This document shows, piece by piece, positions 20,069 through 43,387 of a DNA stretch of 64,000 nt (within the stretch, counting starts at the first letter, position 1; every line of letters begins with the position of its first letter). The position numbers and the translations under genes were made by a program. This stretch comes from Marsupella aquatica (lineage: Eukaryota; Plantae; Marchantiophyta), in the NCBI GenBank assembly GCA_973895155.1, contig OZ316894.1, forward strand, positions 10,633,874-10,697,873, given 5' to 3'. The notes under the pieces were generated by a model that was not told where the DNA came from, made no database searches, and saw nothing but the letters and a program-made list of their open reading frames with translations.

Positions 20069-22999
20069 ATGAGCCTATTGTAAGTTCCACCCAAGGTCTG
20101 GCATTAGCCTTGACTATATGCACAACAGCACTACCGCTAACATTAGCTAAGTCCTAACCCGAGTTAGACTAATTGTGGTTAGCTCATGAGTCACAAGACT
20201 AGAGCAATATCTAACAAGTACCGTCATCTTATTCTCATGTATGTCAGCCAATCCACTTGGGTATGACAATGCATCACTTGGGAGAGGATAGAGATCAAAG
20301 AAGAGGAAAGGCTCTACTGAATCCAGTATTGGAGGCTTTTCTAATTGTTGGGCCTCCAATTGATGAGCCAGGTTTTGGGTTTGGCATCCATTCACCTCTA
20401 TTATCCTACTAGCCAATGGATCATCATGCCCACTTCCAGTTCCATCCCCAATGTCAGAGTGGTCCAGAATCTAGACCCTAGACCCTTATTGCTTTCGATG
20501 CCTTATTGGATACATTTGAAACCCCATACTCAATGTTTAGTTTGGTTCGCAAATTGACTGTTTCTGTGATGTGAGCTGATGAAAAAGTTATCGAAAAACA
20601 TGATTTCACTACAGGAACAGGGCAACCTTTCGGAATGAAGTGAGTCAGAAAGTCGCTTTTGCCATTGATGAAGTGACTTTGTTGCACCAGGAGCTTTTCT
20701 TGGGCAGGGATCCTTTTCTGCAGCTCTCTACGAACATTTACACCAGGTCCGTCTATCTGTCTCTCTAGCATTCCCTAGAATCTGACCGTGGTCTCTAAGT
20801 AATTAGAACTTTGGGCGTTCTGTTCGGTAGGGAGCTTGCTGCTGGCTTTTTACGACGTCAGAAGATCTGGAGCTTCAGCTAAAAGGCATTAGACCATTGT
20901 TGCTGCCAACGAGATCTAATGAAATCCTGCTGTTATGTATTCTCTCTGGCCGAATTTTGCTTTTGAGGTGGACTGTTCTGAGGACAACAGCAGCTCTGTG
21001 ATGGAGGGAGGCAAAGTCAGGTCTCTTGAACGTCCTTGAGGCAACCGTTGATTATGAACACTTTTGAGAGAATTCTGACAGTAGAGGGCTGTCAGTCGAA
21101 ATTGATAACATACTCACTTTAGTATAGGTTCAAGGGATTTTATTAGCAGGTTGATTTGTCTGCTAAAACTCAAGCCAGATCTCGTTGAAACATGCATATG
21201 TAAAGAGTTTTTGTGCCGTCAGGTAGATCCATGTTATCAGATACTTTGCGTCGCTGAGCATCTGGTTTCAATTTCTGTTGCGCTGGTCAACTTTTTCTGA
21301 TGTCTCAAGGGCCGGCCCTGCCAGGCCCAGCGTATGTATCTGGTAATTACGCCCTTGAACGCGTAATCATCCAAAATGAATTTGGTGGTTTCTGCTTGCA
21401 TTTTAATACCGAGTGGTTATCCTTCACTTGAACAGAGTATAGGATAACGAGAATGACTCGTTCAAATCCATTTTTGCAAACTCCTAAGCCATCCGAGTTT
21501 TTCATTCAACGGATGGGAGGGCCCCCACTCTATTATCGGAGAAGTCAGAATATGGTTTTCTCGTATCAAGATTGGTATTCCCAGTTTATAATTAATTGGA
21601 AGCTCAAGAGGGTCCAAACCCTTTTCCATATTGTTGATTGTAATCAGTATTTGATATGCGAACTATGTCGATGTATACAAATAAGTGGTGGAAAACGTAA
21701 ATTACTCTACCCACTTAGTGATGAGTGCGCAGGACATCCGGCTTTGATAGGTCGCCAGGCAGTAACTGAGCAAGCAGCTCAGCATTGGTTACAGCACAGG
21801 AGGGCTACTGTGGACACTGTCGAAGCCATTGACTCTGACTCAAAAAGTAGGATGTGGAGCTCCTCCAGGTGCATTGCTGCCCAGATGCACCTACTTTGAC
21901 ATTTGTTACTCTAGTATGCTCACAGCCTTATCACTAAAGTTCCATTCTGCCATGTGATGTCAGCTTTTTCTATATTTTTCTGGTTGACATTGAAGATTCT
22001 GAGAAACTCAAGAAGATGTGGTGATTGATCTGGTCAGGGTGAGTGAGTACCTCTCTGGAGTCCATGCTGATGAAACAAGTCGACTGTCTGTTGCTCATGC
22101 AGGCACACTGCCTTTTCCTGTTGGCCGGTAAAGAGAAGATGAGCGGTCAAACCAGGCGTGCAAGTGGTCGGCCGATAACCTTATCTTTGAGATTTGCATC
22201 CTCATGTAAACTGCAGGGATGGTGGTTGCAATTTGGAGTATCCGGATATTGCGAAAACAAATCCAGTTTTCCATTCTGGAAGCTTCAAGTAAACCTACAC
22301 TGTCGAAGATTTACCAATCTCTACGAGTATCTGCCGCCAGCCTGTGGTGGTAGGGGATGTGGCTGATGTCGTACGAGCAATTAATCTCGTAGAACAACGT
22401 GACACTGTCTACACTATTGAAAACTTCTCTACTCTGAGGACCTTGACGAAGAGAGGATGTTTTTCGTCCAGCTACGGGACCGTCAATTTGATGATTGCAT
22501 TTGCATCAGGGTTCAACCTAAAGCAATCTGGATCGATGTCATCTCGCATGGTCCCGTATCTACGGATGCATCTATTTTGCGTAATTTGAAATCCAAGATC
22601 TTAAACCCCAAAAACTTCCTTTACCTGATGACTTCGACTGCTTCAATCCGAGTCCCGTCTACTGCTCAGCCTTTCTGTCTCACGCGTCCCTTTATTTGTA
22701 GGTCTTCTCCATGCGGTACAGTGTATGCCGGTGAACTTTCAGTGGACTTTGACTATTCTATCGTCGAATATTTCAAAGTAGCAAAGAAACACTTTCGTGA
22801 CCGGACATTGCCAGCAACTTTGCGAAAGAGTGTCGTCCACTGCTGTGCATCCGTGTCTGTACCAAGTTGTGCAAAGTTTTAGCCGTTCCTCAGCAGAACG
22901 TCGTTCCTCAGTAATTCTCTCGCTCTCCATTGTTTGGACTTGACTGAGTGTCTAGAATGATTGTTCAGCGAGGTACTTACTGACTGCGTGATTGTCAGC

Positions 23000-24440
23000 C
23001 ATCTTGTAAATTGAAGGGTTCTGAATTCACGAACCGAAAAGATACTGATGCTCTCAGCCAAATCCGCAAAGCCACCCCAGACCAGATACAGGATTCATTT
23101 CCGAGGGACAGGGCGTCACCAATTTCATCCGGCCTAGTCGAAGTCCATGTTTGCAAAATGGAATGAATTGAAGAGTTCTGAATTTGAACACAATGCGTCA
23201 CCGATTTCATCCGGCCTAATCGAAGTCCATGTTTGCAAAATGGAATAAACTGAAGGGTTCTGAATTTGAACGTCTCTGAATTTACAAACCAAAAAGACAC
23301 TAAGGGTATCAGCCAAAACCCACGAACCCACCACAGACACAGGATTCTCTTTGGAGGGGAAAATCCGCCACCATTTTCATCCGGCCTCGTCGAAAGTCTA
23401 TGGTTGCTCGTCGAAAGTCTATGGTTGCAAAACGGAATTGCGTTCTCACAATCGAGAGTCTTTTTCAACGGGAGCAAAAGAAGTCCATGTTTGCAAAATG
23501 GAACAAATTGAAGGGTTTCTGAAATTGAAGGTCTCTTCTGAATTAACAAACCAAAAAGACACTCAGGCTATCTATCAGCCAACAACGCCCACGAATCCAC
23601 GACAGCAGACACAGGATTCTCTTTGAAGGGGAAAATCCGCCACCATTTTCATCCGGCCTCGTCCAAGTCTATGTTTGCAAAATGGAATTGCGTTCTCACA
23701 ATCGAGAGTTTTTTTCAACGGGAGCAAAAGAAGTCCATGTTTGCAAAATGGAACAAATTGAAGGGTTTCTGAAATTGAAGGTCTCTTCTGAATTAACAAT
23801 CCAAAAAGACACTCAGGCTATCTATCAGCCAACAACGCCCACGAATCCACGACAGCAGACACAGGATTCTCTTTGAAGGGGAAAATCCGCCACCATTTTC
23901 ATCCGGCCTCGTCCAAGTCTATGTTTGCAAAATGGAATTGCGTTCTCACAATCGAGAGTCTTTTTCAACGGGAGCAAAAGAAGTCCATGTTTGCAAAATG
24001 GAACAAATTGAAGGGTTTCTGAAATTGAAGGTCTCTTCTGAATTTACAAACCAAAAAGACACTCAGGCTATCTATCAGCCAACAACAACCACGAATCCAC
24101 GACAGCAGACACAGGATTCTCTTTGGAGGGGAAAATCCGCCACCATTTTCATCCGGCCTCGTCCAAGTCTATGTTTGCAAAATGGAATTGCGTTCTCACA
24201 ATCGAGAGTCTTTTTCAACGTGAGCAAAAGAAGTCCATGTTTGCAAATTGGAATAAAGAAGGGTTTCTGAAATTGAAGGTCTCTTCTGAATTTACAAACC
24301 AAAAAGACACTCAGTATCAGCCAACAACACCCACGAACCCACCACAGCAGACACAGGATTCTCTTTGGAAGGTACAATCCGCCACCATTTTCATCCCGGT
24401 CTATGTTGGCAAAATGCAGCTGCGTTCTCGAGGACTCCAA
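23000..24440. repeat. Tandem satellite with a 250-bp unit (~5.5 copies, central copies nearly identical)
   Basis: AGGATTCTCTTTG(G/A)AGG at ~23341, 23613, 23863, 24113 and 24355. Each unit contains GTC(C/T)ATGTTTGCAAAATGGAA twice. Confidence 0.92.
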
Positions 24441-24474
24441 TATACATTACAGAAGTTTCAAGGAGACCAAAACC

Positions 24475-24546
24475 TGCCTCCACAGAGGATCGAACTCTGG
24501 ACCTTCAGTTTACAAGACTGACGCTCTACCACTGAGCTATAAAGGC
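24475..24546 (-). tRNA. trnT-UGU: tRNA-Thr (anticodon UGU)
   Basis: The reverse complement GCCTTTATAGCTCAGTGGTAGAGCGTCAGTCTTGTAAACTGAAGGTCCAGAGTTCGATCCTCTGTGGAGGCA folds to a 72-nt cloverleaf with A and B boxes. A TTTT Pol III terminator follows 3 nt downstream. Confidence 0.95.
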
Positions 24547-25433: not shown

Positions 25434-27049
25434 CCCCCTCTCAACCATGGCTTGTAGTGAGTGACTGTTCAGATCAAGCAATATTAATCTACCTATGGGG
25501 AGGAGCAAAGTAAGGCTTCTGAGTGTATCCTATTCAAAGTATACACATAACACCAGTGCACATAGAGTAAATGGGGTCTATCATGCCAGAGGAGGAGGTA
25601 GTGTTGAGAGAGTCTGCAATGCTTCTCATTCTGTCCATGTTGGGGTTTATATCGACAAACTCCCAAAGCATGTGTGATTACTTGGTGTGTAATCATGGCG
25701 GCCAGCCCAAAGAGGAGGACTCTCCCCCTAGTGAAGAACGGGCACTAGAAGAAAACGTCCCCTTTTGAGACCCTATGCTTTGTGACTTTAGGGAGACTTT
25801 CAAAAATACATGACTCCAAGTTTAGGGGAGTCATTGTTGTTACATTTTATCAACTGATTTTTGGGGGATATTTGTGAAAGTCATTCCTACAACTTCTGAT
25901 AAAGTAGCAATTGTAACACTAGTAGGGCAGTCATATGTAAGTTGAATAAGCTACTCTCCATTACGGCATTCTGAAATAGAGTGCAAGAAGGATTACATGC
26001 ACTCTAGACATCACGGAATGTTCCATTTACAACCCTTGACTTGCAACTTGCGGAGTCGGGAGCACTAGGTGCACATAGAAGGAATGGGGGTTTAGGGTTG
26101 CAGAACTAGTTAAATGTCTTCATTTCAAGAGCATTGTAGCTAGTTATCCTAGCTAGCCTAATTAAACGTGCATGGGAGTACTTGCCTCTATAATAGTAAG
26201 TCTTATGCTGCTCAATGGATTCCTTAGAGTTCATGGGCAACTTTGACAAGAATATTGGGGTGATATCATTTTCAATTCAGGGCTAAAGTAGTGTCTGGCC
26301 CCCATTCTTTGTCCACCCTCCCTAAGTGGCATGTGTAAGGGTTAATTTACAGTTGCGTTCTAAGAGGTTACAGTTGCGTTCATTTAATCTTTGCTCACAA
26401 AGTGTCGTGTCCAATTTGCTTTAGGGTACTAACATGTGTATCAACGGCTCATGTCAACGCAAAGTGGTCGAGGCTCATTGGGTTTGGTTCACTAAGTGTC
26501 ACTAAGTGTTAAGGTATGCTTTGTGCGTGAGTGTGCCTTTGGACACGAGTTTAGGGTGCGCGGGTTTTGTTTAGGGTTTAAACACGCCAGCAGAGTGCAA
26601 AGTTCAGTTCAATGTGCGTGGGAACTCGGAGGTTTTTGTTTCAGAAAAACTCACTTGTCCATTTCGGGGACATTCGTCGTGCCTGAAGGTCGTCACATTG
26701 TGCGCGGTCTCACAAAGTGGGGAGTGTGCTTCGCGATCGGGGCAGTTCCTTCGCGTAGGGGAGTTTTGCGCTTGGAGCTTGAAGGTTTACCTTCAAAGCT
26801 CTAGAGCATTCAAGCTGAGAGGGCGACCGGCTTGCGGAGTGGAGAGGTGAGCTGCAGTGGACGACGAGCTCTAGGACTGGGAGGAGCTGTGGGCGGGCAG
26901 GAGCTGCAATTTGGGAGCTGCTCTGGCCGCCGGTCTGGCCGAGGAGCTACGAGCGGAGAGCAGCTGGAGTGGAGCTCGAGCGGAGTGGAGCTGGAGTGGA
27001 GTGCTTCTGTCACACACTGCTGAGGATTGCTACGTAGCTTCAGTTTGGG

Positions 27050-27425
27050 CGGCGGTGCGAGCAGAGGTGCTGAGAGCGGCTCAGGTGCCAAAGGAGGTGG
27101 TGCGAGCGGAGGTGCGAGCGGAGGTGCTGAGAGCGGCTCAGGTGCCAAAGGAGGTGGTGCGAGCGGAGGTGCGAGCGGAGGTGCTGAGAGCGGCTCAGGT
27201 GCCAAAGGAGGTGCTGAGAACGGAGGTGCGAGCAGAGGTGCTGAGAGCGGCTCAGGTGCCAAAGGAGGTGGTGCGAGCGGAGGTGCGAGCGGAGGTGCTG
27301 AGAGCGGCTCAGGTGCCAAAGGAGGTGCTGAGAGCGGCTCAGGTGCCAAAGGAGGTGCTGAGAGCGGAGGTGCGAGCGGATGTGCGAGCGGATGTGCTAA
27401 GAGCGGAGGTGGTAAAAGAGGTGCT
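27050..27425 (+). repeat. G-rich minisatellite of 12/15/30-bp modules inside the CACTA
   Basis: GGAGGTGCTGAGAGCGGCTCAGGTGCCAAA, GGAGGTGGTGCGAGC and GGAGGTGCGAGC are repeated. All modules are multiples of 3, so two + frames and one - frame stay open. Confidence 0.9.
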
Positions 27426-29074
27426 ATTGGATCACTGAGAAGGCTGCAACCTCTCTATCTTATTCCTACTATCTGGCGGTTGCAGTTGGAAGGAGGGTCG
27501 AGTGGCGAACATTTTGTCAGTTGAGGACTTAGCTGCGGGTTTGTCATTTCCTGGAGCTCAATCGCTTGCTACTAAGACTACTGTTGCTGCAATTGCAAGT
27601 TGCTTGATCATGAGCTCCCTAGCTCCATTGTGAGTTGCCTCCCTATTCTCCTTGTTCTCCCTGTCTCCCCCTTGCTTGCAGTTACTATCGCCAGGAAGAA
27701 TGTGTTTGGCCAAGATGCTAGATTGCGACTTGTCTTCTTGCTTCTAGCTCGTGTATATGCTGGCATCCGTGGGGGTTCCTCGAGTTTGAGTCTGCAGAGG
27801 AAGAGTCTATCATAGTCTAATTAAATGTGGGCCATATTACTCTAGTCAATGAATGAGTTCCCTGGAAATAGAACCTCTCTGATTATAGAGGTGCGATTCG
27901 GTCAGAATTTTTTCCCCTCTCATTGTATCCACTGATGCCAACTCACTTTCATCACCTCAATTCTGAACAATGAGCGTAGTCTCAGGCTCCATACTGCCTA
28001 TACTGAATGGTCTAGCTGCGATGTCCACCTCGGCTGAAGTGAGCTCTGACTTGGAGCCTTAACATTTGTGTTCTGTGGGGCTGATTAGAGTTGGTTCCGT
28101 CCAGAAGCTGCTCTACTAAAGTGATAGAGCTCCGGCTTGGAGGTGGATCTTCACTTTTTTGTGGGTCTGAGTGACTTCTGTCTAGCTGGGCTTAGCTGAG
28201 TCAATAATACATTCAAAAGAGGTGAGTATCCCTGACCAACATTTATTTACTCTTGACCACGCCAAACTAATGGCGCTTCAATTTGAACTTTCTAAGTCTG
28301 ACTGCTGACTCCACTCCTTAAAACCTACCTTAATTATATTCATGTCTTTCTTTTGTGCATGCGCATAATGTCTTTCATTCAGTTTAACATAAAATGTGAG
28401 ACAGGGCTGCATCCAGCTCTTCTAGATGACAAGAAGGCATTGATCAGTTGCTTTTTGATCTTTCCTCACCAAACAAGAAATCTTTCTTACAAGAAACCTG
28501 TCTTACAAGAAATCCGGCCAGTCTCACAATGCCATTGTTGATGAAACCTTGCTTCTGCTGATGAAACCTTGCTTCTTCTTAATCCAATGCTTGCTGCCTT
28601 GTTACAACGTTTGTCTAGTTGACCGCTTCAGTGCCTATTCTTCATTTCCTGTTGTTCCATTTTTGGAAATTTATGCTTAAGGAACCTGCATTTCCTTCCC
28701 TGTCCCCATGCTATCTCCACTGCACCTTCCACTGCTAGCTATGTTGATTCCTTCCACTGCTAGCTCTAGACAATGATGCAGTCCAAATGCTGATCAGTCT
28801 CACTGGGGGTGCCGGTGCAGACACAACTCGCACTGTGTGATTGTAGTTTTGCTTTGTCGGGACGAATGTGTTTGGCTAAGATGCTAGATTGTGGCTTATC
28901 TTCTTGCTTCCATCTCGTGTATATTCAATTAGTAGAAGCTGGGAACGAAGTGAAAATTGAATTTCCTTATATTAAGCATCCTGACCTAGAAACTCAATAC
29001 ATAAACTCCTGGAGTCCCTCGGGACATAAAATGAGCCAAATTGTTTCAAAATTGGGAACCTGCACCCGCACTAC

Positions 29075-29416
29075 TCAAACAAATGTGTTGGGCTTGGTGG
29101 CCTTGTAAGTCGTCTTTAGCTTTCACGATGGAGGTTGAATCTTGCGGTACGTCAAGGGGAACTTGATCTTTGAATCATGGAACTGCTTGGTACTTTCTCG
29201 CTTGCACAGAGAGACAGGGACTGTCGTAGTCTTGATGATCTGGATGCAAGGGAACCGAACTCTATGACAAGAAGCCATCTCATCATACATCTGCTCTACA
29301 GCGATGTTCAATGTGGTATCACGATATTTCTTGTACATGTTGGGATAACCTGTACGACTCTGATACCTCACCCAGATACCGAAGTTCTTAATTGTGGTGG
29401 GCTTCTTTTCGAAGAT
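29075..29416 (-). pseudogene. RPL18a: Captured last exon of 60S ribosomal protein L18a (eL20)
   Basis: Reads [63 protein letters not shown]...[10 protein letters not shown]...PS*KLKTTYKATKPNTFV*. Preceded by a CAG acceptor. Premature TGA at 29123-29125. No upstream exons are present. Confidence 0.93.
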
Positions 29417-30424
29417 CTGGTAGACACATTATTCAGCATTTGCTAACTTCGAAACTAGAAGGGTAACACATTAAACAACAGATAAACTCACAACATCCTC
29501 CTTTGGTCCTTCAGAGTCTGTACTTTGATTATGAAGTTTGACTGAGTTTCTGTTTACTGAAAGAATATGACTGTGTAAGAGTTCCGTTTGGCAGTGGATT
29601 GGTTGAAGCACTTCATGCTAGTGTGTTGTCTACAGCTCTTCAACCAGCTTTCGTCTTCCTTGTCTTTCACCACTTACGATGACATCAATTCAGCTAAGAC
29701 CATAGAAGGTTCCAAAGCATCTAACTTGTAAAATCGCATTCTGTTACATCAAGGACTAAGGTGTTGGGTGCCAAAGGAGACAGCACAACAAACACGCTGA
29801 AAAGACTTCAGGACTGGGTTCAACAAGGCAGTGAAGGTGCTTAGAGCCTAGTAAGTATGCATTCTGTATCTTTCTCTGTTGATGTGAGCTTGTGCATAAT
29901 GGGAGTTGTAGTTGGCAAGAGTTCCAAATAAAAATAGATCCAGAAGTATGTGATCATCTACTTGCTCTATAAAGTTCTGAAGATATAAGCATTTTCTGTT
30001 AGACCAGGCAACTTGGGAGTTGGTAAGTGTCACCTGCATCTGAGGGGCTACACCGGGGGCATCAGTGGAGGTTCACTTGCACAACACGACAACCAATGAA
30101 TTTTCTCTCTGCTACAACCTGCAAGGTGAGACTTTCGGTCTTTCTGGATAAAAAAACAGGATTTTAATACGATTGATATACATGTCCGTCGAGAATATGG
30201 GTTTATCACCAAGCTCTTTGTCTTAGGAAACTCATAAACTCAGAATCAAATATGTACTATGTACGTTTCATGCTATGTGTATACTATGACCTGTAGTTGG
30301 AACCAAGACAATGAGTGGGAACTGATTAGTTTAGGTGGTTGCTGTTGGTGAGGCAAGTCGACCTCCTGCTCACCTTGCTCATCAAAGGACGTGAACAGAG
30401 GACATCACAACGAAAGCAACACTT

Positions 30425-30873
30425 ATGGTGAGGACCCGCAACGCTGAACATGTGCGACTTGCACGCAAGGCAGAGATGTTGCGCCTTGAGTATGTCAGAC
30501 TTGGGATCCTTCCAGCCCAGTCTACATGGTACTTTGAGTACCCTGTTGTTTCCAGGAACAACTACAGCGGCCTCTACCTGCTTCAGTACCCTTCCCGACA
30601 TCCTTGGTATTTGTGTCTCTTGTACATGACCCGCCACAAATTAGGTGCCAAGGGTGTGTACACAGTTGCCAATATGACTGTCCTGCCTGTAGGGCTTCTG
30701 GCCCAGAATTGGATGATCGTTCTCTTGGATGCCAATTTTTGCACAGAGCACAATGTATCATCTGGAACCACTCGCCATCCTGCAGTGTGCCTGGTGATGT
30801 CACTTGTCCTGCCCTCCCAGACCCCACCACCGGTGACTTTGGTGTCTACACATGTTTGGATCACATGCTCTAG
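30425..30873 (+). pseudogene. Small Cys/His-rich zinc-finger (PHD/RING-variant-like) ORF, probably frameshifted; CACTA accessory gene A
   Basis: ATG at 30425 (MVRTRNAEHVRLARKAE...). From ~30570 another frame gives CQGCVHSCQYDCPAC...CQFLHRAQC...YTCLDH, with a stop at 30873. Confidence 0.5.
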
Positions 30874-31490
30874 AGGACCACTTGTCACACCGCATGCACA
30901 GACCAGATACCATTGACCTATAGCTTAACACTCTGACTTCAACACAGAGGATATTTACTTAAAATTTTGATGTATGAGCAATTTTGGGTCCAGGGTTTAG
31001 GGTCAACAGTACATAACTTATATCCTATTATGCCTGCACTAAGCAAAATATCCTAATTTAAGAGGCTAGCAAACTCGCATAAAAGTCTCTATTGAAAGAC
31101 TGCTTTCATGACTGCTTTAACCTGGTGAACATTGCAACGTTCAATGAATTAATGGGCCATGTGATAACCTGTAAAATGTGATTTATGCATCACTTATTTG
31201 TCTCAGCCACTATCATAGCCTATTTAGGATGTATAAATTTCAACCCTTATGACACTGTTTCATACCAATCCTCTTCGAAGAATGCGCGTTTTACATGTCA
31301 CGACTATTGTATGTGATTCAAATGCATGAAATGTTGTTGCAAATCTCCTTTGGTGAATCATAGCCACAATTAAAATTGAGGTGTTGGTGGAGCAATTGTA
31401 TTAGGGGATCAGGTTTGTGTGTGGGCTCAACATACCAAAAGTATGTATGCTCTGCATCCTTGTGTGGCCATTCCAATTCATTGCAGTAGC

Positions 31491-31634
31491 AAATGCCTTT
31501 GTACCTTAAATGCTAAATATATTTTACTTTCTGTGCAGTCTGCTAAATTGTAGAGTCTATCTAAATGCCTTTGTACCTTAAATGCTAAATATATATTACT
31601 TTCTGTGCAGTCTGCTAAACTGTAGAGTCTATCT
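31491..31634. repeat. 72-bp direct tandem duplication just upstream of the PHD gene
   Basis: AAATGCCTTTGTACCTTAAATGCTAAATAT...GTAGAGTCTATCT occurs twice, nearly identical. Confidence 0.9.
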
Positions 31635-31645
31635 CATGCGCAGGC

Positions 31646-32330
31646 ATGGCATGACCTAAAATTCAAGCCAAAAAGCGTGTGACAGAGGTGAGAAACACAG
31701 GTGTACTTGGGGCAGATGCTACTAACTTCTCTGCAAGTCAGATTTTCCAGAAGGCAGCTCATTGTTGTGCCATTTGTGACGATGGTGGGGGCCTGGTCAT
31801 TTGTGAGGGCCCTTGCATGAGGCATTTCCACCTCAACCCGGAGTCTGACCTTGCTGCAGAAAACAATTGTCCAGGGGTGGGCCTCCCGTCAACACACCAG
31901 GGAGACTGGATGTGCACTGATTGTTTGGAGAAGCAGGCTAACTAAGTGTGCACAGTGTGGGAAGTTGGGGTCCTATGAGGGCTCTATTGATGCTGCAGCA
32001 AATGTTAGGAAATGTCCAGACCATTTTTGTGTGAGATTTTTCTGTTTTGAGTGTTTGCCTGCTCATGCCACAGCTTGCCCACTTCATAGGTGCAAGGCAT
32101 GTGGTGAGCATGATCATGAGTACTGGACTGACATAGTCCACTGTGCTAGGTGTCCCACCATGTGGCACTATCATTGCCTGAAAGATCGTCAAGCAGAGGG
32201 TTATGCTTGTGATAGAGAAATCTCTGATCACTCTGCACATGGTGTTGATCGATGGATATTTTATTGTCATCGCCATGCCATTGATCCTACCTCGCGCACT
32301 CCTGTGAGAGATCACATATCTTGGCTGTGA
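31646..32330 (+). pseudogene. Stand-alone EDM2/NSD-type triple PHD-finger protein; CACTA accessory gene B (two lesions in this copy)
   Basis: ATG GCA TGA CCT AAA (MA*PKIQAKKR, probably CGA>TGA). Then CAICDDGGGLVICEGPCMRHFH...C..C, a 4-bp CTAA duplication at ~31938-31945 that shifts the frame, and KCAQCGKLGS...CPLHRCKAC...CARCPTMWHYHCL...YCHRHAIDPTSRTPVRDHI. This matches the recalled EDM2 pattern CAICDNGG..CCEG.C.RSFH / CPLHKC..C / CRRCPKSYHRKCL / YC..HEID....TPVRDH. Confidence 0.85.
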
Positions 32331-32922
32331 AGCTGAACATTGTACATGCACAGTGCACCTGATGTGGATGTACTATTTTTTGAGATTGCAGAGATTCCAA
32401 TTTTGAAAAGGAGTTGGGTAGACGAGTTTATATAGGCAGCACTTATCTTGTGCTCTGGCGTCAGTGGCTGGGTACATGCCTATAAAAACTTATCCTTACA
32501 AGCCTTCTTGGAAGTATTTAGGCTGAGTGGTCATTTTCATAAACACTTTCATCAGATTGCTAAATTAAAACAGGACTTCTAAGTTGTAAGCGTATAAATT
32601 ATCAGGCATGCGATTAATGAAATTGCCCTATAAGTTTGTCATTGAACGTATCCTCCTTTACAACAAAATATGTATGTGCCATGACAAGTTGGTTGCACTT
32701 CATTTCACCTTCGATATGGATTTTGTAGTATATATTCAAACAATGTCCTACATCCGTGCAGGTGCCTAGTACGTATTGTTCACATATCCCTTGTACCTAT
32801 CAAAATCGGACCTGAGCACCAGTGGGCCAGATCAACTCAAGAAGCAGGAATTTTGTTGTCCTTGTATTGTCAGGTGAACCCATTCTTCCAAAATTCACTG
32901 TCATCACGTAGGGTGTGTGTAC

Positions 32923-33795
32923 ATGGAGCCTGGGAAATGTAGAAAGTGTGACCACCCAACAGTGTTTACAGGGGTCAGAGCCATTTTGGTCCATGGCCAG
33001 CATGGGTTGACCAAAGTGCATTGGCCAATTGTACAGAAACAATTCTCTGAGCTCCATGGCACTGTAGTTCAGGACATCACTCCAGAGACTACACATGTTG
33101 TTGCAGGGACATGGCTATCAGTGATAAAGAAGTGGTCATGGTCCTACATGAATTCTGCAATTACTAAGCAAGGCCTAAAAGTAGTTGAGGCCTCTTGGAT
33201 CACAGATTCCATAGCACATCAGATTGTACAGGATACTGAGCAATATGAGCTGTGGGAGGATGAAGAAGCTACTGCATCAGCTTGGGCTGAACAAGAAGTC
33301 TGGGAAGCAAAGGCACGGCTTGCTGATGTCCAATATGGACCTGTACTCAACAAAGGACAGAGCTCTAGAAGGCTGAAGAGTATGTTGGCTGAGGAGACGA
33401 AGCAACCAACCCCCATTCTGAAAGGGCTGAGCATGGTATTTGTGGAGGCGGGAATTGGAGAGGTTAAGTGCAAAGTGTACAAGTCCACGGTGCTTGATCT
33501 AGGTGGGACAGTGGAGGAGAATATAACAGAGGACACCACTCATGTCATTACTAAGTCATATCCCAAAGCCTGCCGCAAGTTTGGGAAGGGAGACATTCGC
33601 TTTTATGTCATGTCCCATAATGTGTTTGTGGTTTCATATGCTTGGCTTGTGGAATCAGTAGCAGCTGGGAAGTGTCAAAACCCAATGGACTATGATCTTT
33701 TTGAGGCCTGGCCACGGAAGGGTCAGGATCCTTACAGAGAGGACTATGAGACAACAAGTGAGGAATGGGTCATTAGCGATTCTGAATCAGAGTGA
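32923..33795 (+). CDS. Tandem two-BRCT-domain protein (DNA polymerase lambda-like BRCTs); CACTA accessory gene C, intact 290 aa
   Basis: Two homologous repeats: VFTGVRAILV...LHGTVVQDITPETTHVV...VVEASWITDSI...YEL and ILKGLSMVFVEAG...LGGTVEENITEDTTHVI...KFGK...VSYAWLVESVAAG...YDL. Both have the BRCT GG, THV and WxxxS hallmarks. Acidic tail EEWVISDSESE. Confidence 0.85.
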   Translation: MEPGKCRKCDHPTVFTGVRAILVHGQHGLTKVHWPIVQKQFSELHGTVVQDITPETTHVVAGTWLSVIKKWSWSYMNSAITKQGLKVVEASWITDSIAHQIVQDTEQYELWEDEEATASAWAEQEVWEAKARLADVQYGPVLNKGQSSRRLKSMLAEETKQPTPILKGLSMVFVEAGIGEVKCKVYKSTVLDLGGTVEENITEDTTHVITKSYPKACRKFGKGDIRFYVMSHNVFVVSYAWLVESVAAGKCQNPMDYDLFEAWPRKGQDPYREDYETTSEEWVISDSESE

Positions 33796-34467
33796 GGAGT
33801 AGTAGCATCAGTTTGGACACAAGTTTTTTGTATAAATCAGATCATTGAAATAAATGTGATCTTTGAACTAATGTACCTTGTTATGGTTGGTGGCAGTTGG
33901 GCTTATTTTACTGTTGGCAGATTGTTGTTTCTTGCTGCCTGGGGGTGTCACTGTAAACGTACTGGGTGGGCTCAAATCTCGGCGGTGAGATATCTGATAC
34001 CGCTCTCACACCTATGCCTATGACTATACATGATTGGACTCTGATATGGTCATGGGTGTACATGTAGAGGCGGTACATTTGAGGACAGCTGTGGAGGTGG
34101 TGACACCCTCAAACATTGAGGAATTTTGTGTCATTCACTTGACAATAGGTACACTACTCGCAAACCTGTTTTTTTCTTTTGGGGTGGTTTAGGGTTTGTG
34201 AGAATTTATTACACGTTATGTTAACTCTTTTGGCACATACAGTCAGGGATATATGGAACACAAATACCACCATTAGGCATCCCTGTTCACTGCTGTCCAT
34301 GACTACAGAGCTTCCAGCCTGTTGCAATGCACCCTGGTCACCACCCTCCCCAAACCCAGCCCAGGGCACAGGCACTGCCTTTGCATCATCCCACAAGGAT
34401 ATCACGCCATGATAATAAGCTTTGGCAGCGTGAAAGGTTATGAACCAGACTTTCAGGAGCCAGTAGG

Positions 34468-37400
34468 ATGAGATGTCCTTGTGCAATCTGCCAAGGATCC
34501 CGTACCAGGGGTCTGAATGAGGTTTGGCGGCATATCGCGGTTCATGGAAGAGATCCACGACATCGAGTTTGGAATGATCCTGTAGAGGAAGATTCTTCCG
34601 ACGAGGAGTGGAGGTTAGAATTTGATGCTGCCAATGCTGCAAGACGGGCAAGTGAGGTTCTGCCTGGTGCATTTGAAAATGTTGTAGCTGGTCTTTGTGG
34701 ATTGTCAGCTCTCCAACGGGATGGTGCTCAGGCAGCACCACGTGACGAAGGAATTCATGTGGAAGAGATGGTGAGAGACATCTTCCAAGACTTGGATGCA
34801 TTTCATGATGGGCTGGACAACGAAGAGGATACGGCTGCAGATGCAAGTGTGCCCCCTGTCAAAGAGCCTCTTGATGAGTTTGAGATAGGGCAGGAAACCC
34901 CTGGGCATGATGGGATGTTTGGCTCTCCCCTGCAAATACAAGAAGGCAGGAAGTCTTTGTACCCCAGTAGCAAATGTTCTAAACTGGGATTTGTCATCAT
35001 GTTCCTGAACATTTGCGACAACCACAATGTCCCCAACGTTTTGGTTTCTGAGTTGTTGGCATTCTTGCGAACAACTGTGCTACCAGATGGTAATATTTTG
35101 CCCAAGAACATGTACGAGGCAAAAAGATGCATATCTAATCTTGGATTGAACTATGATTCGATCCATGCCTGTCCTGATGGGCATGTTCTTTTCAGAAAGG
35201 AGTATAAAGAATCGTTGACATGCCCTAAGTGTGGGAAGCACAAGTATCGGAACTCAGGAAAGTCTATGGTTCCCACCAAGGTACTTCATCATTTTCCACT
35301 CATTCCCAGACTTCAGCGGATGTTCAGAAGCCGTGCCATCTCGGAGATGATGACTTGGGCAACTGACAAGAAAAGTGATGATGGGCTACAACGACATGCT
35401 GCAGATTCAAGGCAATGGAAACTCATAGATGAGATGTATCCCGAATTTGCTGTTGAGCCGAGGAATGTCAGACTTGGGCTGTCATTGGATGGGGTAAACC
35501 CATTTGGAGACAAGAACAATAAATTTTTGTGCTGGCCTGTAACTATTTTGAATTATAACCTTCCTCCTTGGATGACTACAAAGCGATTTTTTGTTCTGAT
35601 GGTCCTACTGATACCAGGGCCAGACAATGCTGTATCTGCCAACATAGATGTGTTTCTGGCTCCCCTAGTGGAGGAATTGAGAAAGCTTTGGGAGGAAGGA
35701 GTTCTCACATATAATGTCCTACAGAGGCTTGGGAGGTTAAACCCATTCATCCTTAGAGCCATTGTCATTCTGACTATAGCTGACTACCCAGCCCATGGGA
35801 TGATATCAGGCCAAACAACAAAAGGATATTGTGCTTGTACTATCTGTGGGCGCAATGTCACGAGTGAGTACTCCAGAGCCCTGCCGAAAGTGATATACTT
35901 GGGCCATTGTCGTTTTCTGAAGGCAGATCACCCTTACAGAGAAAGATAGGCACTAATTGCACACTTTGGCAATGAGATTGAGCAACGTGGACCCCCGGCA
36001 CGAGTGACCAAAGAGGAGATCAGGCAGTGGGGAGCACTGAGGGATGACTATATCAAACGAGGGGGCAGGGAAGATGGAGTGAGTGATCCAATAAAGCGAT
36101 ATGGTGTAAAAAGACTGAGCATATTGGACTTGGAGCTCAAGTACTGGAGGGTAAGCCTCTTGGAGTTGATGCTAATTGGGATACATGTTTTGGTTCAGAG
36201 CATGTGCATTCATTTCGAAGAGAGAGACTAAACTTGAGGCATTTCCTGACGCTTTTGCATTGCAACAATGCAGGAGTTTGAGCCAAGCAAACATAACATT
36301 GATGTTATGCATATTGAAAAGAATATTTGTGAGAGTCTACTCAGATTCTTGTGTGGAGAGAAAGACACTGGTTCAGTGAGATTGGATCTTGAACAGAGGG
36401 GAATGAAACCCCATCTTTGGTTGAGGCCACATGCCCACAGAGCTGATGTGCTCTTGAAGTACCAAGCGCCCTATGTTCTGACAGACACAGAGTGGGAACT
36501 ATTTGTGCAGAGGTTGAGTTCTTTGAAGGTTCCTTCAAACTATGGTAGTGCTTTCAAGAAACATATCATGACTAGAAAGCTTGGTAGTATGAAAAGCCAT
36601 GACTACCATATGTTGATGCAACAGGTGTTGCCTTTATGCCTGAGGGGCCTGTTGCAGAAGCCTGTTCGTACTGTGATCATGCGACTCAGTGATGTGTTTC
36701 GTCGTATTTGTGTGAAGGTTTGGGATGAAACACACTTCCCACAACTGACAGAAGATGTCGCTCAGGTGCTGTGTGACCTGGAGATTTATTTTCCTCCCGC
36801 ATTTTTTGATGTCATGACCCACCTACTTGTCCATGTTGTGGAAGAGCTACACCAATTTGGGCCTGTGAGTGCTCGTTGGTTGTACCCTTTGGAACGGTAC
36901 ATGAAGCTACTCAAAGGTCACGTGCGAACATATTACAAACCTGAAGCAAGCATGGCTAAAGGTTACATCAAGGATGAGACTCTGGGATTTCTGACCGAAT
37001 ACATAGCACAATATGAGCATGTGAAGACCAGGGTGTGGAATTATGATGAGGAGGAAGGGGTGATAGGTGAAGTACTGGAAGGGGCTGCAACCACAAAGAA
37101 CCTGACCATATCTATGAGAGACTTGGCACATGACTTTGTATTGCACAACACTGTGGTGATGGAACCCTGGATACAGTGAGTGCATACATGTGCTATAATC
37201 CAGTTCATGAGCTTAAATGTTGTGTTCGTGTGGTTTTCTCCTTCAGCCTGTTCATGTTTACCCAAGCTAATGCTATGTGGTTGTTCGTTCAGGGAGTATG
37301 AGTCATTGAAGGCGGCCCATCCCACTGCAGGAACAACTTTTCCAGGTTTCATGGAGTGGATCAGAGTGGCAATTAGAGAGCATCACGAGACCCACCCAGA

Positions 37401-38058
37401 CATGGATGCAGATGTTTACCTACTGTCTAATGCCCCTAGCCTGAAAGTGAAGACTTACAAACGGATGAGAGCATATGGGAATCACTTTCGAGTGAAGGAT
37501 GGTGACAGTGCCTATAGGGTGACGAATGACTGCGGGCTCATCACTGTATTTGAGCAACAGAGCCACAATCACGACAGGGCCTGGATGGAGATGGGATATG
37601 TGGGAGAATTAGTTGACATATGGGCTCTGGACTATGGGGCGGTGTCCAGTCCTGTGATTCTTATGAAAGGTTCATGGGTGCGGCAGGATTGGCTTGGTAA
37701 CAGGGCTACCATGAAGAGAGACAACGACGGTTTCTTGCTGGCCAATTTCAGAGGGAAATTGCCCGAATGGTCTGAGCCATTTGTGTTTCCTAGTCAGGTG
37801 GAGCAAGCTTTCTTCCTGGATGTGGAAGACTCCCCAGGTTGGCGTGTAGTGTGTCATAAACAGGCCAGGCAACGTCGGATGGAAGGATCAAACCTTGAGT
37901 TTCATTTACACTCTCATAGTGCCTTTGATCGTCGACATTCAGACCAAGTGCCTGTAGTTCATGATAGCGGGGACTTCATTCCTGTGACAAGGGTAGATGC
38001 ATTTGCTGAAGGAGGCGAATTCAGAGATGCAGATGCCAACAGTGTGCCTGTGCCATGA
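34468..38058 (+). pseudogene. tnpD: CACTA TnpD/Tnp2 DDE transposase (Transposase_21 + DUF4218 + DUF4216 type), 3 exons, one in-frame stop
   Basis: Motifs CPCAIC, IHACPDG, HFPLIPRLQRMF, RNVRLGLSLDGVNPF, YNLPPW, IADYPA, HNIDVMHIEKN, MKSHDYH, FPPAFFDVMTHL, WLYPLERYM and EPFVFPSQVEQAFF. GT-AG introns at 36151-36273 and 37176-37292 keep the frame. TAG at 35947-35949 interrupts exon 1. Confidence 0.95.
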
Positions 38059-38214
38059 GTAATGTGAATTGTTTGCATGGACATTAGTGAGGGGAAGGAT
38101 GTGTAATAAAGTAATTCTGAAGCAACACAGATGTATGGATGGATGCCTGGTGATTGTGGTTGCATTGTGTTATACGGGGTGATCATAGATGACATGTTTT
38201 TGTGGTCCAGTAGG

Positions 38215-41200
38215 ATGGAACAGAGTGACACAGAGATGTGTGAGTATGAAAGGAAAGCTATGGAACAACGAGCATACGTGAAAGCCAAAATCGCAGAACT
38301 GGATCTGGAAAAGGATGTGGCTGAATTGTAAGGGAACGATTCTCAACTACACCCCTCCGCTGAGTTTGTGTGACATGAATAGTTCAATGTGGCACTGAAA
38401 TTGTGACTGTATTCTCATATTGGAATGTTGCAGAGCCACAGCATTTTCAAAGAAACAAAAGGAGTACGCAAGAAGGGTGACCAGCACTATCTCTGGGCCT
38501 GTGCGTCGGAGTGATAGGTTGAGCAAGAAGGTCGTACCTACAATGGCAGAATGTGGAGATGACATTGATGCTGCACAGGTGGGTGCAAACACTAGACAAG
38601 AAGATGCAGATGATGAGTATTTTCCAGAGGAAATGGATGAGGATGGGGGTTATGAAGATGAATACATTGCAGAGCAGCCCCAAAAGAAACAGGTAAGTAG
38701 TTTTCCCAACAAGGTTTTGAGTTAAAAACTCTTGTTTAGAGGTTTCATATGTTCAGTACTACACATATGTACCTTGCTTAGTTCCTGACATTGTAGTTGG
38801 TGATGTGATGCAGCGTCCTGCCAGTTCTGTTTTGCCTTCGAAGCCTGTGCATGTACCATACCAGCAGGGGGGGCTGACCTCTGATCAAGGTTGGCAAGGT
38901 GGTAGTAGTGGTAGATCCCAGGCTGGTGCCCAATACTATGGCAGGGGGCAAGCTCTAGGTTATGCCCGTGGTAGAGGCAGAGCAGGTCCAAACCCACAAT
39001 CTCGTGGGTATGGACGTCCACCTCAACCATGGGGATGTGATATATCTATATGCCAATTCTTTGTGAAGGCATGGCACTCCTGAATTTCAGACTGCATATC
39101 AATTTTTGACATTGTTTGGTATGTATTGGATTCAGACAACATGAAATTCTGTCCACCTGCCATTGCATGCAGATTCTGCCCAACCTGATTGGGCAAATGC
39201 TAGTAATGATCAGTTCCAATGTCCACAAGGACAGACATGGGTTGAACCAGGTTGGGAGGATGGTGGTGGGTCGTGGAATGAACAAGGTTGGGAAGGTGGT
39301 GAAGGTAATTGGCAGGGATATCAAAATACAATACCTACAAACGCTGGAAGAGGGGCAGGTAATGTCTGATCTTGTCAGCAATGGAAGAACTCATTATATC
39401 TGGAGTCCATTCACGTGGGGGGACTCTGCACATGTATAATGATAGAAAATGTATGTGTGCAGGTTGGACAGTCGAACCATCGACTCAAGTATTCACTAAT
39501 GCCCCTATGCAGATGCAGCACGGAAGGGGGACAGGTATGTTGGTGAATGTTCAGTTGTTTTCCTACAGTTTGTACTTAGTTTTCAGTACATATGTTTGCA
39601 CACACATACCTAGAAAGTGACATCATCCGGCCCCTGTACTAGGCTGGACAGGTGGTCCAGGGTCGCAACAATTTCAGAGTGCAGTCCCTGCACAGGCATC
39701 TACAGGCAGAGCTACAGGTATGTATGTTTGAAGAATTTTTCTTGAAGTGAAGCATTGAATGTTGCCGTCATCCATTCTGCTATATGTAGTTCTCAAGCAT
39801 GAATGGCATTGTATTTTCCCAGGTGGCTTCAGAACCCCAGGTAGGGTGAATGAAGGGGTGGCCAATACAACGCCCAGTACTACCGAGAGCAGTGCACGAG
39901 GGGAGGTGACAAAGAAAGGGAACGTAAAGTTGAATGAGAGACAATGGGTGGATGCTGAGTGTCCTCGCAAGAACCAATGGCATGCTGATTTGAAAGCTGA
40001 AGTATTGCGTTGGTTAGATGTGAGTGTTATTAATTTTAAAAAACAGCATCCAAAAGATTGGAAGACTGTATGTGAAAATGTTGCTGCCAAATGGAATTAT
40101 GTGGGCAATGATGATGGCGTGGACATAGGTTGCCTAGAGAGTACAGCAGGTAAAATCATCAAGCAAGAGAGGTGGAGAATGCATAAGGCTTGGAAGGAAG
40201 GTGGGGAGAAGCCAGATATGCCTCCACCAGCCAGTTGTGATGATAAAGTGTGGGCAAAGTTAGTAGCTTATTTTGTAATAGATGCTTCAAAAAAGAAGAG
40301 TTCACAGATGACCGAGGCCAGGTTGAGTGTTCAGAACCCTAATCTGACAGGAAGGACCGGCACTGCACCGACAGCTAAACGTTTGGTAAGAATGAATGGC
40401 CTAGCTATGTAATTTATGCTACACTATGTACTGTTTTTTAGTGTAAACCCATACATGTAAACTTTGTTTTTTAGTGTACGTTCCCTGAATATTGATCGAT
40501 AACTTGTGTTTGCCATGCATGTGCAGAAAGCCCAATTGGGGCAAAGCCCTTCAAAAGAAGAGTTGAGGGCTGAAATTGTGAACACCCGGGCTCAAGAGGG
40601 TGCATCTGAATCCTCCAAGCATGTAAGTTATATGAGTTCTGATTGGTAATTGAATGACCTGCGTTGAATTTCAGGTGTACACTGTATATAACATTGATTG
40701 TGCATATATTGCCCAACATTTCATATGGAGTGATTGAACCTATACCCCTGTGTCATGTAGGGAGGTGGATCTTCACTTACAGAGATAAGTGGTCGTTTGA
40801 AGGCTGTCGAAACATGTCTTCCAGAGATCAATGAACGTTTGAATTCATTGACTGACTTGTTCCATGTGAACTTCAAGACATTAATGGAAGCTGTTGTGTC
40901 GGTGAGAGATAAAATTGATTCCAATTCTGCAGGAGTTCCACCATCACCACTTGAGGTGGCAAAGTCGATGCACTCTTCTGGCATGCCAACGACATGTAGG
41001 CTTGAAGGTAAGGCCTTTACAATTGTGTGGGATATGATTATTAAATGTATAGTTTGAATTGACATTGTTTGTTGAATGTGTTATTTTCAGTAACATATAT
41101 TGTGGTTGTTGTGTCCATAGAGAATAAGACAGGTGCTACAGAGAAGAAGTATGAGAACCTAGCAAATACTCGCTGTAATTTAGAGGCAACAAAGTTGCAG

Positions 41201-41917
41201 TCTGTACAAGCAACTTGTTTGACAGAGGGCAGTCAACCATGTTTGGATGAGGATGACATTGGCAAGGGAGTGGATGATATCAATGTTGGGGCAAATGAGG
41301 ATATCAACAAGCATGACAATGATACCATTGAGCCAGATTCATGCTATGTAGATCTTGACTCCATTGCAGAGATAAATGATTTGCAGAATGTATCATTCTC
41401 AATGACAGGTGTGTCTCTTGTTGAGATAAATCCAACCAAAGAGTTAGTTGGTATGACACTCCCAGGTGATGAACCTGCTACTGTGACAGTCCTAACAGAG
41501 GAACCTACTGAGCCTAGCTTCACTACTGTGAAGAGAGGAAGCATGCGCACACGAAGCAAGTCTGCTGGTGGGAGCAGAGCCACGTCAAAGGTTTCATACA
41601 AACCTCCAAGAACGGTGCTGGCAGAAAGATCTAAAGTGGAAGTGGGTAAAGCACCTAATGCTGAGGGACAAAGTGGCTTGTTAGCTCTTGATGAGAGTGG
41701 AACACGAGTAGGATTTGGCAGAGTGCAGGTTGGTTCCACAACGTTCCATGGCAAGAGGATTCCCCCAGGTTATTCAGTAGTGTTAGTCACATTACTAGTG
41801 AAACCTAAAGCTGTCCTTCCCATTCCAAACACAAATGATGATCCTCCTCAAAAGACACTTGGAGATGCTGCAGGTTCTTTGGTATTATGGCCAAGCAAGT
41901 TCATAGAGGATCCATAA
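38215..41917 (+). CDS. Multi-exon CACTA TnpA-like protein (Ptta/Transposase_24-like core and C-terminal Tnp1/DUF8039-like domain)
   Basis: In-frame GT-AG introns at 38328-38433 and 38693-38813, with more short introns downstream. Core KIIKQERWRMHKAW...PP...WAKLVAYF...KKSSQMTEAR...TGRTG. C-terminal VGFGRV...FHGKRIPPGYSVVLV...LPIP...TLGDAAGSLVLWP. The exon structure and integrity are only partly resolved. Confidence 0.75.
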
Positions 41918-43387
41918 CAATGTCATGCCATTATTTGTTTGTAGTGTGAGTCATGTTATGTAGATTTTAGATGTCAAGAAGCAGTACAAGAATCATGTCC
42001 TCTTGGAGATTCATAGTATCATGCATGTGCTTTCAGTTATCTCATCCTGCAGTCATCAATTATGAGTTCCTGTTTTGTCTGAATTACATTGATCACATTG
42101 TAAACTATTCCATTGGAATTCAAATGATCTTCATTTTTTAGCAAGATTGTGATTGTGTTTAATTCTTATGAATGTTTTATGTAGGATCTGCTTATATGAT
42201 GCTTTGTTTCATGTGGATGTCATTCATGCTATGTTCATTTCTTGTATTCAATGTGTTATATTTCTAAAGTTAGAACATCAGGTTTCTATGTATTGTAATG
42301 TCGAGTGCTCTCTCTCCTTATGAACTGTCCCTCTGTGTTCATTAGTCATGGTTATAACTTGCATGTGAACCTTATTAGTTATAAACATGAGTATATAGAG
42401 TTCCAAATGGTTCTGTTGTGTGACGCGGGCCAGGGTCTCCATTGGTCTCTCCTGTGACACTAAATGGTCACACGCTAGTCGTTGTTGAATGCGGGTAAGT
42501 CATGTATGTGACTTACGATGTGACTCGCTGAAGTCATATTGCAGTCACGTCGAAACAAGGCTAGACTCCACAATAAAGTCACAGATCAGTCACAAATGGG
42601 TATCAAGCAAGTTGCAAAGCCCAGTATCAATAGTGACTACCATTTTTTGGTCTCAACTTTTGCAACTCCAAGGGTCACAGCGTGGGTCAAGTCACGTTGA
42701 GTCACAATGAAGTCACATGAGCCAAAATGAGTCACATATTGCGGTCTCAGTTCACCTCGGATTCTTCTAGTGGGGGAGAATCATTGAAACCACTAGCTGG
42801 TGCCGCAATAAGAGTTGAGAGAGCCAAGGAAGAGCACTTTCAAATAATGGGGCCAAGTATTCCAATATACAAAGAAGAGACTCGGTGCCTCTCGCCAAAC
42901 GGATAAGCTGGAGCTTTTTTAGAGGATCAGGCAGCCCAAACAATATTGTTCAGTGGCTTGAGGTTATTAGGAGGTTGCCAACAAATAGCAATATAATTAT
43001 GATCATTTTTCCTCCTTAGTGTAAGATGTACAAATTTGGATCTAGAGAGCTACGTATGCACCTATTGACCTTAGGAACGAGTCTACCTTTCTTTACCAAG
43101 CCCTGGGACTTTGGTTAAGGCCATAGATTGACTTTCCAAGTATGCAAACAAGTTTTTCTTTATCAAGAGTAAGGAATCCTGGTGGGTGCCTAAGAGTCCT
43201 GTTGAGTTGACAGTAACCACATCCATATGTGACAAGGACCACCCTAGTGCAGCTGCAAGCACCACTCTTAGTGTGAATGTTGACCACTTGACTACCAGAG
43301 CAAATGTTTCTTCATAATCTGATCCTTCCAACTGTTCATTTCCCCTTGCGACTATTTGTGCATTGAATTTGATGTTGCTTGCATGGT

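Follow-up and report, generated by a model that had tools for sequence, protein, structure and literature searches.

Are the three short open reading frames (ORFs) that lie ahead of the transposase gene in a CACTA transposon of the liverwort Marsupella aquatica genes of the transposon itself and, if so, what might they do for it? The element lies in a 64,000-nucleotide stretch of contig OZ316894.1 (assembly GCA_973895155.1, forward-strand positions 10,633,874 to 10,697,873), which was analysed as a whole and is called here the window; all coordinates count from its first letter. The three frames, A, B and C, occupy positions 30425 to 33795, and a first-pass annotation made from the sequence alone had read them as a zinc finger, an EDM2-like PHD reader and a tandem Pol-lambda-like BRCT protein. 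From sequence comparisons we consider it quite probable that B and C are transposon genes that have been under selection. For the whole, we favour, at about an even chance, the explanation that this is a defective CACTA copy in which B and C are old accessory genes, B being a reader of histone H3 tails that would aid transcription and C a protein that would act on end-joining repair.

The host element spans 17,030 bp (25743-42772), as delimited by its termini and flanking duplication. A perfect 11-bp terminal inverted repeat (TIR), CACTAGAAGAA, is found at 25743-25753 (+) and again at 42762-42772 (-), which gives the element the 5′-CACTA...TAGTG-3′ ends and short TIR of the CACTA/EnSpm group. 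By itself this 11-mer is weak evidence, because 1.7 chance occurrences would be expected at one mismatch; similarly, the GGG target-site duplication at 25740-25742 and 42773-42775 has the 3-bp length of CACTA/EnSpm elements, and is weak by itself because it is a homopolymer. The ends also carry the subterminal repeats expected of the group: AGTCAC occurs 10 times in the 500 bp of the right end versus 4 times in the 16-kb interior, and AGTCA 13 times in the right 500 bp and 6 times in the left 500 bp versus 2.2 times per kb inside, the right-hand cluster of AGTCAC-type motifs extending over 42273-42761. Additionally, the match of a contig from sequencing run X2 ends exactly at 25743, followed by 35 unmatched letters. 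The multi-exon transposase gene tnpD (34468-38058, +) shows, from 34468, the Pfam series Transpos_assoc, Transposase_21, DUF4218 and DUF4216 in CACTA order; Transposase_21 (expectation value, E, 6e-63) and DUF4218 (E 5e-28) are above cut-off, and the other two are below it and in the correct place. A tnpA-like region follows (39759-41917, +), with a weak Transposase_24 match (E 0.0024, 18.5 bits versus a cut-off of 28.7). The first-pass annotation was therefore right in describing a CACTA element bounded by TIRs and a target-site duplication. The copy in the window is defective, as tnpD stops prematurely at 35947 (stop codon 35947-35949).

The cassette lies on the transposase strand, its frames in series ahead of tnpD as first described: A at 30425-30873 (+; 149 codons if read through), B at 31646-32330 (+) and C at 32923-33795 (+; 290 aa). 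The description of three compact frames, each with its own ATG and stop, holds for C, the only one that is open in this copy, but not for the other two: A is shifted near 30567, and in B the third codon is a stop and the frame changes near 31938, where 4 bp are duplicated. An acceptor-like AG is found 2 nt before the ATG of B and another about 50 nt before that of C, so these frames may be exons spliced to an upstream leader and not independent genes; in maize En/Spm, exons are reported to be spliced to a common leader (PMC13547354). A 72-bp tandem duplication (97%, 31491-31634) just ahead of B holds an acceptor-like site. The three frames differ in standing: B is the solid and surprising part of the cassette, C is good, and A is the weak part.

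B matches three NSD-type PHD families of Pfam, one of them above cut-off. Intact homologs are 220-245 aa long; a search for proteins of near length gave 3 candidates, two of which, P0008 (226 aa) and P0009 (220 aa), are intact relatives of B. The pieces of B in the window are identical to P0008 at 182 of 223 positions (82%) and to P0009 at 165 of 220 (75%), and 22 of 23 Cys columns are conserved between B and these two. In a profile search of 1.84 billion representatives, 269 matches were obtained at E ≤ 0.001, and 17 of the best 150, including the top 7, are nearer to this short family than to the host references. The long matches with names are EDM2 of Arabidopsis and Neltuma and PHD proteins of Riccia, Calypogeia, Marchantia and Ceratopteris, with 30-35% identity to P0008, and the EDM2 likeness that had been proposed for B is thus upheld. 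The 2.5 atypical PHD fingers of the EDM2 type are present in B by profile, alignment and fold, whereas intact B gives no match to DNMT1-RFD, a domain that the angiosperm and fern EDM2-like matches have. Judged by its sequence, B is a stand-alone EDM2-type module (PHD1-PHD-C5HCH), not an EDM2. A liverwort clade (P0018, P0020, P0028, P0050 and P0064; 620-770 aa) carries an EDM2-type PHD module near the C-terminus and has no RFD match.

Structure prediction from a 50-row alignment gave a well-defined fold for P0008 (predicted local distance difference test score, pLDDT, 87.4; predicted template modelling score, pTM, 0.81). The structures that this model matches (Foldseek, VIA) are PHD, PZP and NSD PHD-C5HCH domains; the top VIA match is NSD2 PHDv-C5HCH, with a Z of only 5.4 and a root-mean-square deviation of 2.6 over 75 aligned residues, and a sequence search of the PDB found no close solved structure for the EDM2 PHD module. 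A tree was built from 51 rows: EDM2, 10 sequences of the short family and the 40 best-ranked other matches among 123 rows passing a coverage filter. In it, the short family makes up one side of a branch with 100/100 support and about 2 changes per column. Two NSD-like rows did not serve to root the tree of B, as they have long branches and were not grouped together.

A family motif with one match in the window led to a single metagenome locus, L001, and to zero stretches in viral contigs. This locus holds a single-frame relative of B, of about 40% identity, which ends at the same motif. Over 188 codons, the proportion of synonymous differences between the window and L001 (pS 0.754) is well above that of nonsynonymous differences (pN 0.41), the differences being distributed by codon position as 76/74/124, for a pair that consists of two decayed copies with saturated synonymous divergence. 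The equal rates that would mark neutral decay (dN/dS, the nonsynonymous-to-synonymous rate ratio, near 1) are thus not seen, and the codon pattern indicates that the B clade has been under purifying selection. Both ends are kept in just 2 of the 17 short matches among those listed, and gene records in NCBI or UniRef are lacking for all 8 of the short-family clusters that were looked up. This would fit the existence of many decayed repeat copies and is no proof of it, since contig ends could mimic the same pattern.

C matches BRCT twice in Pfam (BRCT_2, 46 bits), so that it consists of two colinear BRCT domains, joined by a linker of about 50 aa and followed by an acidic tail. The two repeats can be aligned with almost no gaps (23% identity, E 2e-12), which makes an internal duplication the likely origin of C. 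Two clusters of homologs, full length and intact, were found among 1326 candidates, at 60% and 55% identity. Conservation is concentrated in the BRCT cores, where 52-65 of 98-99 residues are identical, compared with 20-27 of 52-55 in the linker. When neutral evolution was simulated by substitution without indels, both C lineages remained open in 0 of 3000 runs at 60%/55% identity and in 1 of 3000 at 65%; the frame of C has been conserved. In metagenome contigs, an alignment-based scan yielded 168 pattern matches and no relative of C, and in the ESM Atlas a C homolog used as query retrieved only BRCT clusters scoring below 0.9.

The sequence matches of C in the PDB are BRCA1, Rad4, Lig4, Rtt107 and microcephalin. 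The first-pass annotation had called C Pol-lambda-like; a Pol lambda origin is plausible, and the second repeat in particular may resemble plant Pol lambda. In the alignment with BRCA1, the Ser and Lys of the phospho-pocket in repeat 1 face His (Phe or Tyr in the homologs) and Ser/Thr in C. Since these residues are not kept and the linker is long, C does not appear to be a phosphopeptide-binding tandem BRCT of the BRCA1 type. Structure prediction, useful for the B homolog, failed for C (pLDDT 33.6 from 6 sequences), and that model was not used.

A has a basic N-terminus and, in its 3′ piece, 10 Cys and 5 His. Beyond this Cys/His-rich pattern nothing speaks for the zinc finger that had been assigned to it, and selection on A is likewise unsupported, in contrast to B and C, for which the view of old, diverged and selected genes trimmed to their domains has stood. 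Nor is A a paralog of B, as judged from BLASTP (E 1.0) and from a profile comparison (E 0.23). What supports A is the presence, in related contigs, of the base at 30567 that opens its frame, together with contig match borders that surround it. It is likely a third gene of the family.

Is the cassette found beyond this copy? Other copies were judged from contigs of 4 sequencing runs (four organisms) among the 11 listed, using the best rows of the contig tables; the runs had been found with the cassette as query, and contig depth cannot rank its parts. At least part of 30300-34000 is present in 9 of the 11 listed runs, from 7 studies, one of them perhaps the window's own source. The 4 runs cover 30, 30, 30 and 28 of the 30 bins of the whole element, so that it is represented in several organisms. 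An extra base at 30567, which opens the A frame, is found in 11 contigs (1 from run X1, 9 from X2 and 1 from X5), and the four bases duplicated in B at 31938 are absent from contigs of the same three runs (7, 6 and 1). The frameshifts of A and B are thus not family-wide. Inside B and C, 3 of the 40 variant rows listed are located, too few to test for selection.

Parts of the cassette are linked in other copies by three deletion joints that connect A-side with B-side sequence (30567-31390, 30862-31407 and 30977-31705). At the other end, a contig of run X6 spans 33626-33958, from the 3′ end of C into the spacer, and a joint seen in X1, X5 and X6 resumes at 34058 towards tnpD. The 99 bp skipped by these contigs (33959-34057) are likely an insertion in the window copy. 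The matches of two contigs from different organisms begin at 30265, following unmatched sequence, and one contig match ends at 30905, just past the stop of A. These borders suggest that the copies share a core beginning 160 bp ahead of A, with the RPL18a arm outside it. In X6, B and tnpD are covered deeply and non-coding bins thinly, and in X1 and X2 the cassette has more depth than the 5′ arm, observations that are hints only.

The age of the cassette can be compared with that of another insert. In the 5′ arm of the element, the last exon of RPL18a has been captured together with its acceptor (29075-29416, -; Pfam Ribosomal_L18A, E 1.7e-15), and an in-frame stop interrupts it at 29123-29125. 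The exon region has an observed-to-expected CpG ratio (CpG o/e) of 0.64, close to the 0.59 of the neighbouring COG5 gene, compared with 0.30 for the 3′ piece of A, 0.21-0.24 for B, 0.17 for C and 0.27-0.41 for tnpD, all from small samples. Within that limit, CpG depletion agrees with an old cassette as opposed to a recent capture of RPL18a, and the contrast that had been drawn between the two is sustained; the RPL18a exon was likely captured recently, in the Pack manner, and is distinct from the cassette. The same arm contains a 57-bp tandem array (26993-27424), open in several frames, and a 65-bp direct repeat (89%; 27694-27758 and 28860-28924) upstream of the exon. A separate element nested around the cassette was considered and rejected, as no TIR, long terminal repeat (LTR) or second subterminal cluster bounds it.

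Several observations weigh against the explanation that we favour. In the best rows of the 4 runs no contig spans the whole order A-B-C-tnpD-tnpA, so the cassette is found beyond one copy as parts and joints, while its full order is in no other record; the link between B and C is a single contig that reaches just 10 bases into C. Among the homologs of B and C, none was observed beside a transposase. At the L001 locus (1867 bp), neither A nor C nor tnpD is found in the about 520 bp upstream and 670 bp downstream of the B relative, which is limited evidence, because these flanks are about as long as the spacers of the window. The short 5′ piece of A is less depleted in CpG (o/e 0.53). For C, just 2 clusters of homologs are available, and the neutral test is weakened because the homolog search returns open frames only. 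No PolX chain is found among the 34, 28 and 24 PDB matches of C, a comparison that did not include the plant Pol lambda sequence. The pieces of A have no match in Pfam, PDB sequences, the Atlas or the protein collection. A 26-row tree of B, with branch support of 99/97, gave neither a root nor a donor lineage, and the saturation of the pair compared above belongs with these points. Additionally, a His two residues before the first Cys of PHD1 is found in 15 of 16 family members versus 4 of 93 other matches (AIRE PHD1 has Asp); as this residue is specific to the clade and the other EDM2 domains are missing, the H3 specificity of B may differ from that of EDM2 or be lost. Finally, B need not serve anti-silencing, because TnpA alone is reported to anti-silence in Arabidopsis (bioRxiv 10.64898/2026.08.24.746577).

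How could B and C act if they are accessory genes of the element? EDM2 is reported to bind H3K9me2 chromatin and to suppress proximal polyadenylation, so that full-length transcripts are produced (PMC7529245; PMC9910501; PMC6208443), and Spm elements activated by TnpA are reported to retain H3K9me (bioRxiv 10.64898/2026.08.24.746577). As activation keeps this mark, a long CACTA element is likely transcribed through marked chromatin, where a private reader of the EDM2 type would help. In the mechanism that we propose, B would attach to the tails of histone H3 in the silenced chromatin of the element itself and thereby help its transcription; lacking the other EDM2 domains, it would act as an adaptor that allows a 17-kb multi-gene unit to be read through H3K9-methylated chromatin. 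Alternatively, B would compete with host readers by occupying the mark. C, in turn, would act on end-joining repair at the breaks made by the transposase, binding repair proteins through a protein surface and not through a phospho-pocket. The BRCT of Arabidopsis Pol lambda is reported to bind Lig4 and XRCC4 (PMC4444747), so that the simplest guess for C is an adaptor or a decoy in end joining. A more ambitious version, possible and somewhat doubtful, is that an old CACTA lineage took an EDM2 module as its private heterochromatin reader and combined it with a BRCT and a Cys-rich protein in a kit that would counter H3K9me silencing and steer break repair, the short-PHD clade being as deep as the host EDM2 family.

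The main rival accepts the cassette as part of the element and gives B another task: it would be an integration-targeting factor that reads a chromatin mark at the target and tethers TnpD/TnpA there, in the way that the PHD of RAG2 serves RAG1, and C would pass the ends to repair. All the evolutionary evidence fits this equally well, and B retains just the reader and a basic N-terminal tail, with clade-specific residues in PHD1. Besides, the RAG2 PHD is reported to bind H3K4me3 (PMC5175335) and RAG1/Transib to share catalytic motifs with EnSpm (PMC12730594). We nonetheless regard it as rather unlikely, EDM2, the nearest characterised relative, being reported to act on RNA processing in heterochromatin (PMC7529245). 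In another explanation, B and C diverged and were selected elsewhere, as lineage-specific host genes or in another transposon group, and became CACTA cargo later. The CACTA context has been seen for no distant homolog and the same element did capture an RPL18a exon, both as such a history would predict; but the 8 clusters without gene records and the scarcity of short matches with both ends speak against it, as do a CpG depletion of the cassette equal to that of tnpD and the lack of bounding repeats around it, and we find it improbable. It is more plausible that selection acted while B and C resided in CACTA elements, as we infer.

Could the cassette instead be made of ordinary host exons, from EDM2 and BRCT genes, that a Pack-CACTA captured neutrally and that are now in decay? 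Capture of this kind is known (PMC13317346), and A, B and tnpD are indeed broken in the window copy. However, B is just 30-35% identical to the host EDM2-like proteins tested and sits on a long separate branch; pS greatly exceeds pN for B; and its relatives are intact, end at the same motif and lack the breaks. For C, both lineages stayed open in none of the 3000 neutral runs at the observed identities. Near-identity to fragments of host genes, which would be expected of recent capture, was found for neither B nor C among the relatives compared, the host's own genome lying outside that comparison. This explanation is largely refuted, and we consider it very improbable.

If our preferred explanation, that of B and C as accessory genes, is true, its consequences reach beyond this locus. 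In the literature consulted, the factors with which DNA transposons are known to counter silencing are either proteins that bind DNA (VANC, TnpA) or enzymes that demethylate it (TET/JBP); a histone reader carried by a transposon and derived from a silencing regulator of the host would add a third route. Similarly, a transposon-borne BRCT would offer a handle on how cut-and-paste elements manage the repair of their own breaks. In any case, B is a natural, 226-residue version of the EDM2 PHD module that is predicted to fold well, and it opens two questions to direct testing, namely how CACTA elements are transcribed while keeping H3K9me and how they choose their targets.

The rest of the window contains a decayed non-LTR retrotransposon (10873-14606, -; RVT_1, E 1e-6) and decayed frames of a copia-type LTR retrotransposon (47700-52250, +), identified by eye. 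Positions 21432-21899 and 22421-22882 (+) hold a short match to a bacterial-like globin (E 2e-5) and a weak one to a dCTP deaminase C-terminal domain (E 0.017), and 22995-24520 hold an array of about 250-bp repeats, visible as repeated translations. The COG5 host gene lies at 55024-57720 (+), in a single frame with COG5_N and COG5_C.

Accessory genes in DNA transposons are already known, for instance Peptidase_C48 in CACTA, TET/JBP in fungal EnSpm and VANC in VANDAL elements. The full-text literature search, which did not cover most subscription papers, Repbase or supplements, found no description of a CACTA element with PHD and BRCT, in line with what the first-pass annotation had supposed, and the words PHD and BRCT are absent from the main text of PMC8978399 and PMC13547354. 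The element resembles the CACTA/EnSpm elements described there (PMC8978399; PMC13547354) in its termini, its 3-bp duplication and its subterminal repeats, in the order of its domains (TAD-Transposase_21-DUF4218-DUF4216, followed by a putative Transposase_24) and in the captured fragments of the 5′ arm. Some of those elements carry a ULP1-like Peptidase_C48 domain (PMC8978399), whereas in the window element two or three further frames, trimmed to their domains, precede tnpD. With Arabidopsis EDM2 (P0164), B aligns over the whole 2.5-PHD module (30% over 211 residues, E 6e-26); it differs in its 226 aa, without the RFD, acidic, PGR and methyltransferase-like (ELP) domains reported for EDM2 (PMC7529245), in its separate clade and transposon-borne location and in the His of PHD1. 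Both repeats of C match the BRCT family, as do BRCA1, Lig4, Rad4/TopBP1, Rtt107 and plant Pol lambda, but C is a stand-alone duplicated repeat with a long linker, with no polymerase or ligase and no BRCA1-type phospho-pocket. RAG1-RAG2 and RAG-like transposons also combine a transposase of the wider CMC/Transib group with a PHD partner. The RAG2 PHD, which is placed behind a kelch propeller, reads H3K4me3, whereas B is a triple module of the EDM2/NSD type known from its sequence. VANDAL Mutator elements are multi-gene DNA transposons with accessory genes beside the transposase as well (PMC10398659); they belong to another superfamily, and VANC is reported to be a sequence-specific anti-silencing protein (PMC10398659), while the window element is known as sequence alone. 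Another parallel is offered by fungal EnSpm and other DNA transposons with TET/JBP dioxygenases, where a separate gene would likewise counter silencing (PMC12730594), through an enzyme acting on DNA methylation in the fungi and, in the plant element, through candidate histone-reader and repair-adaptor proteins.

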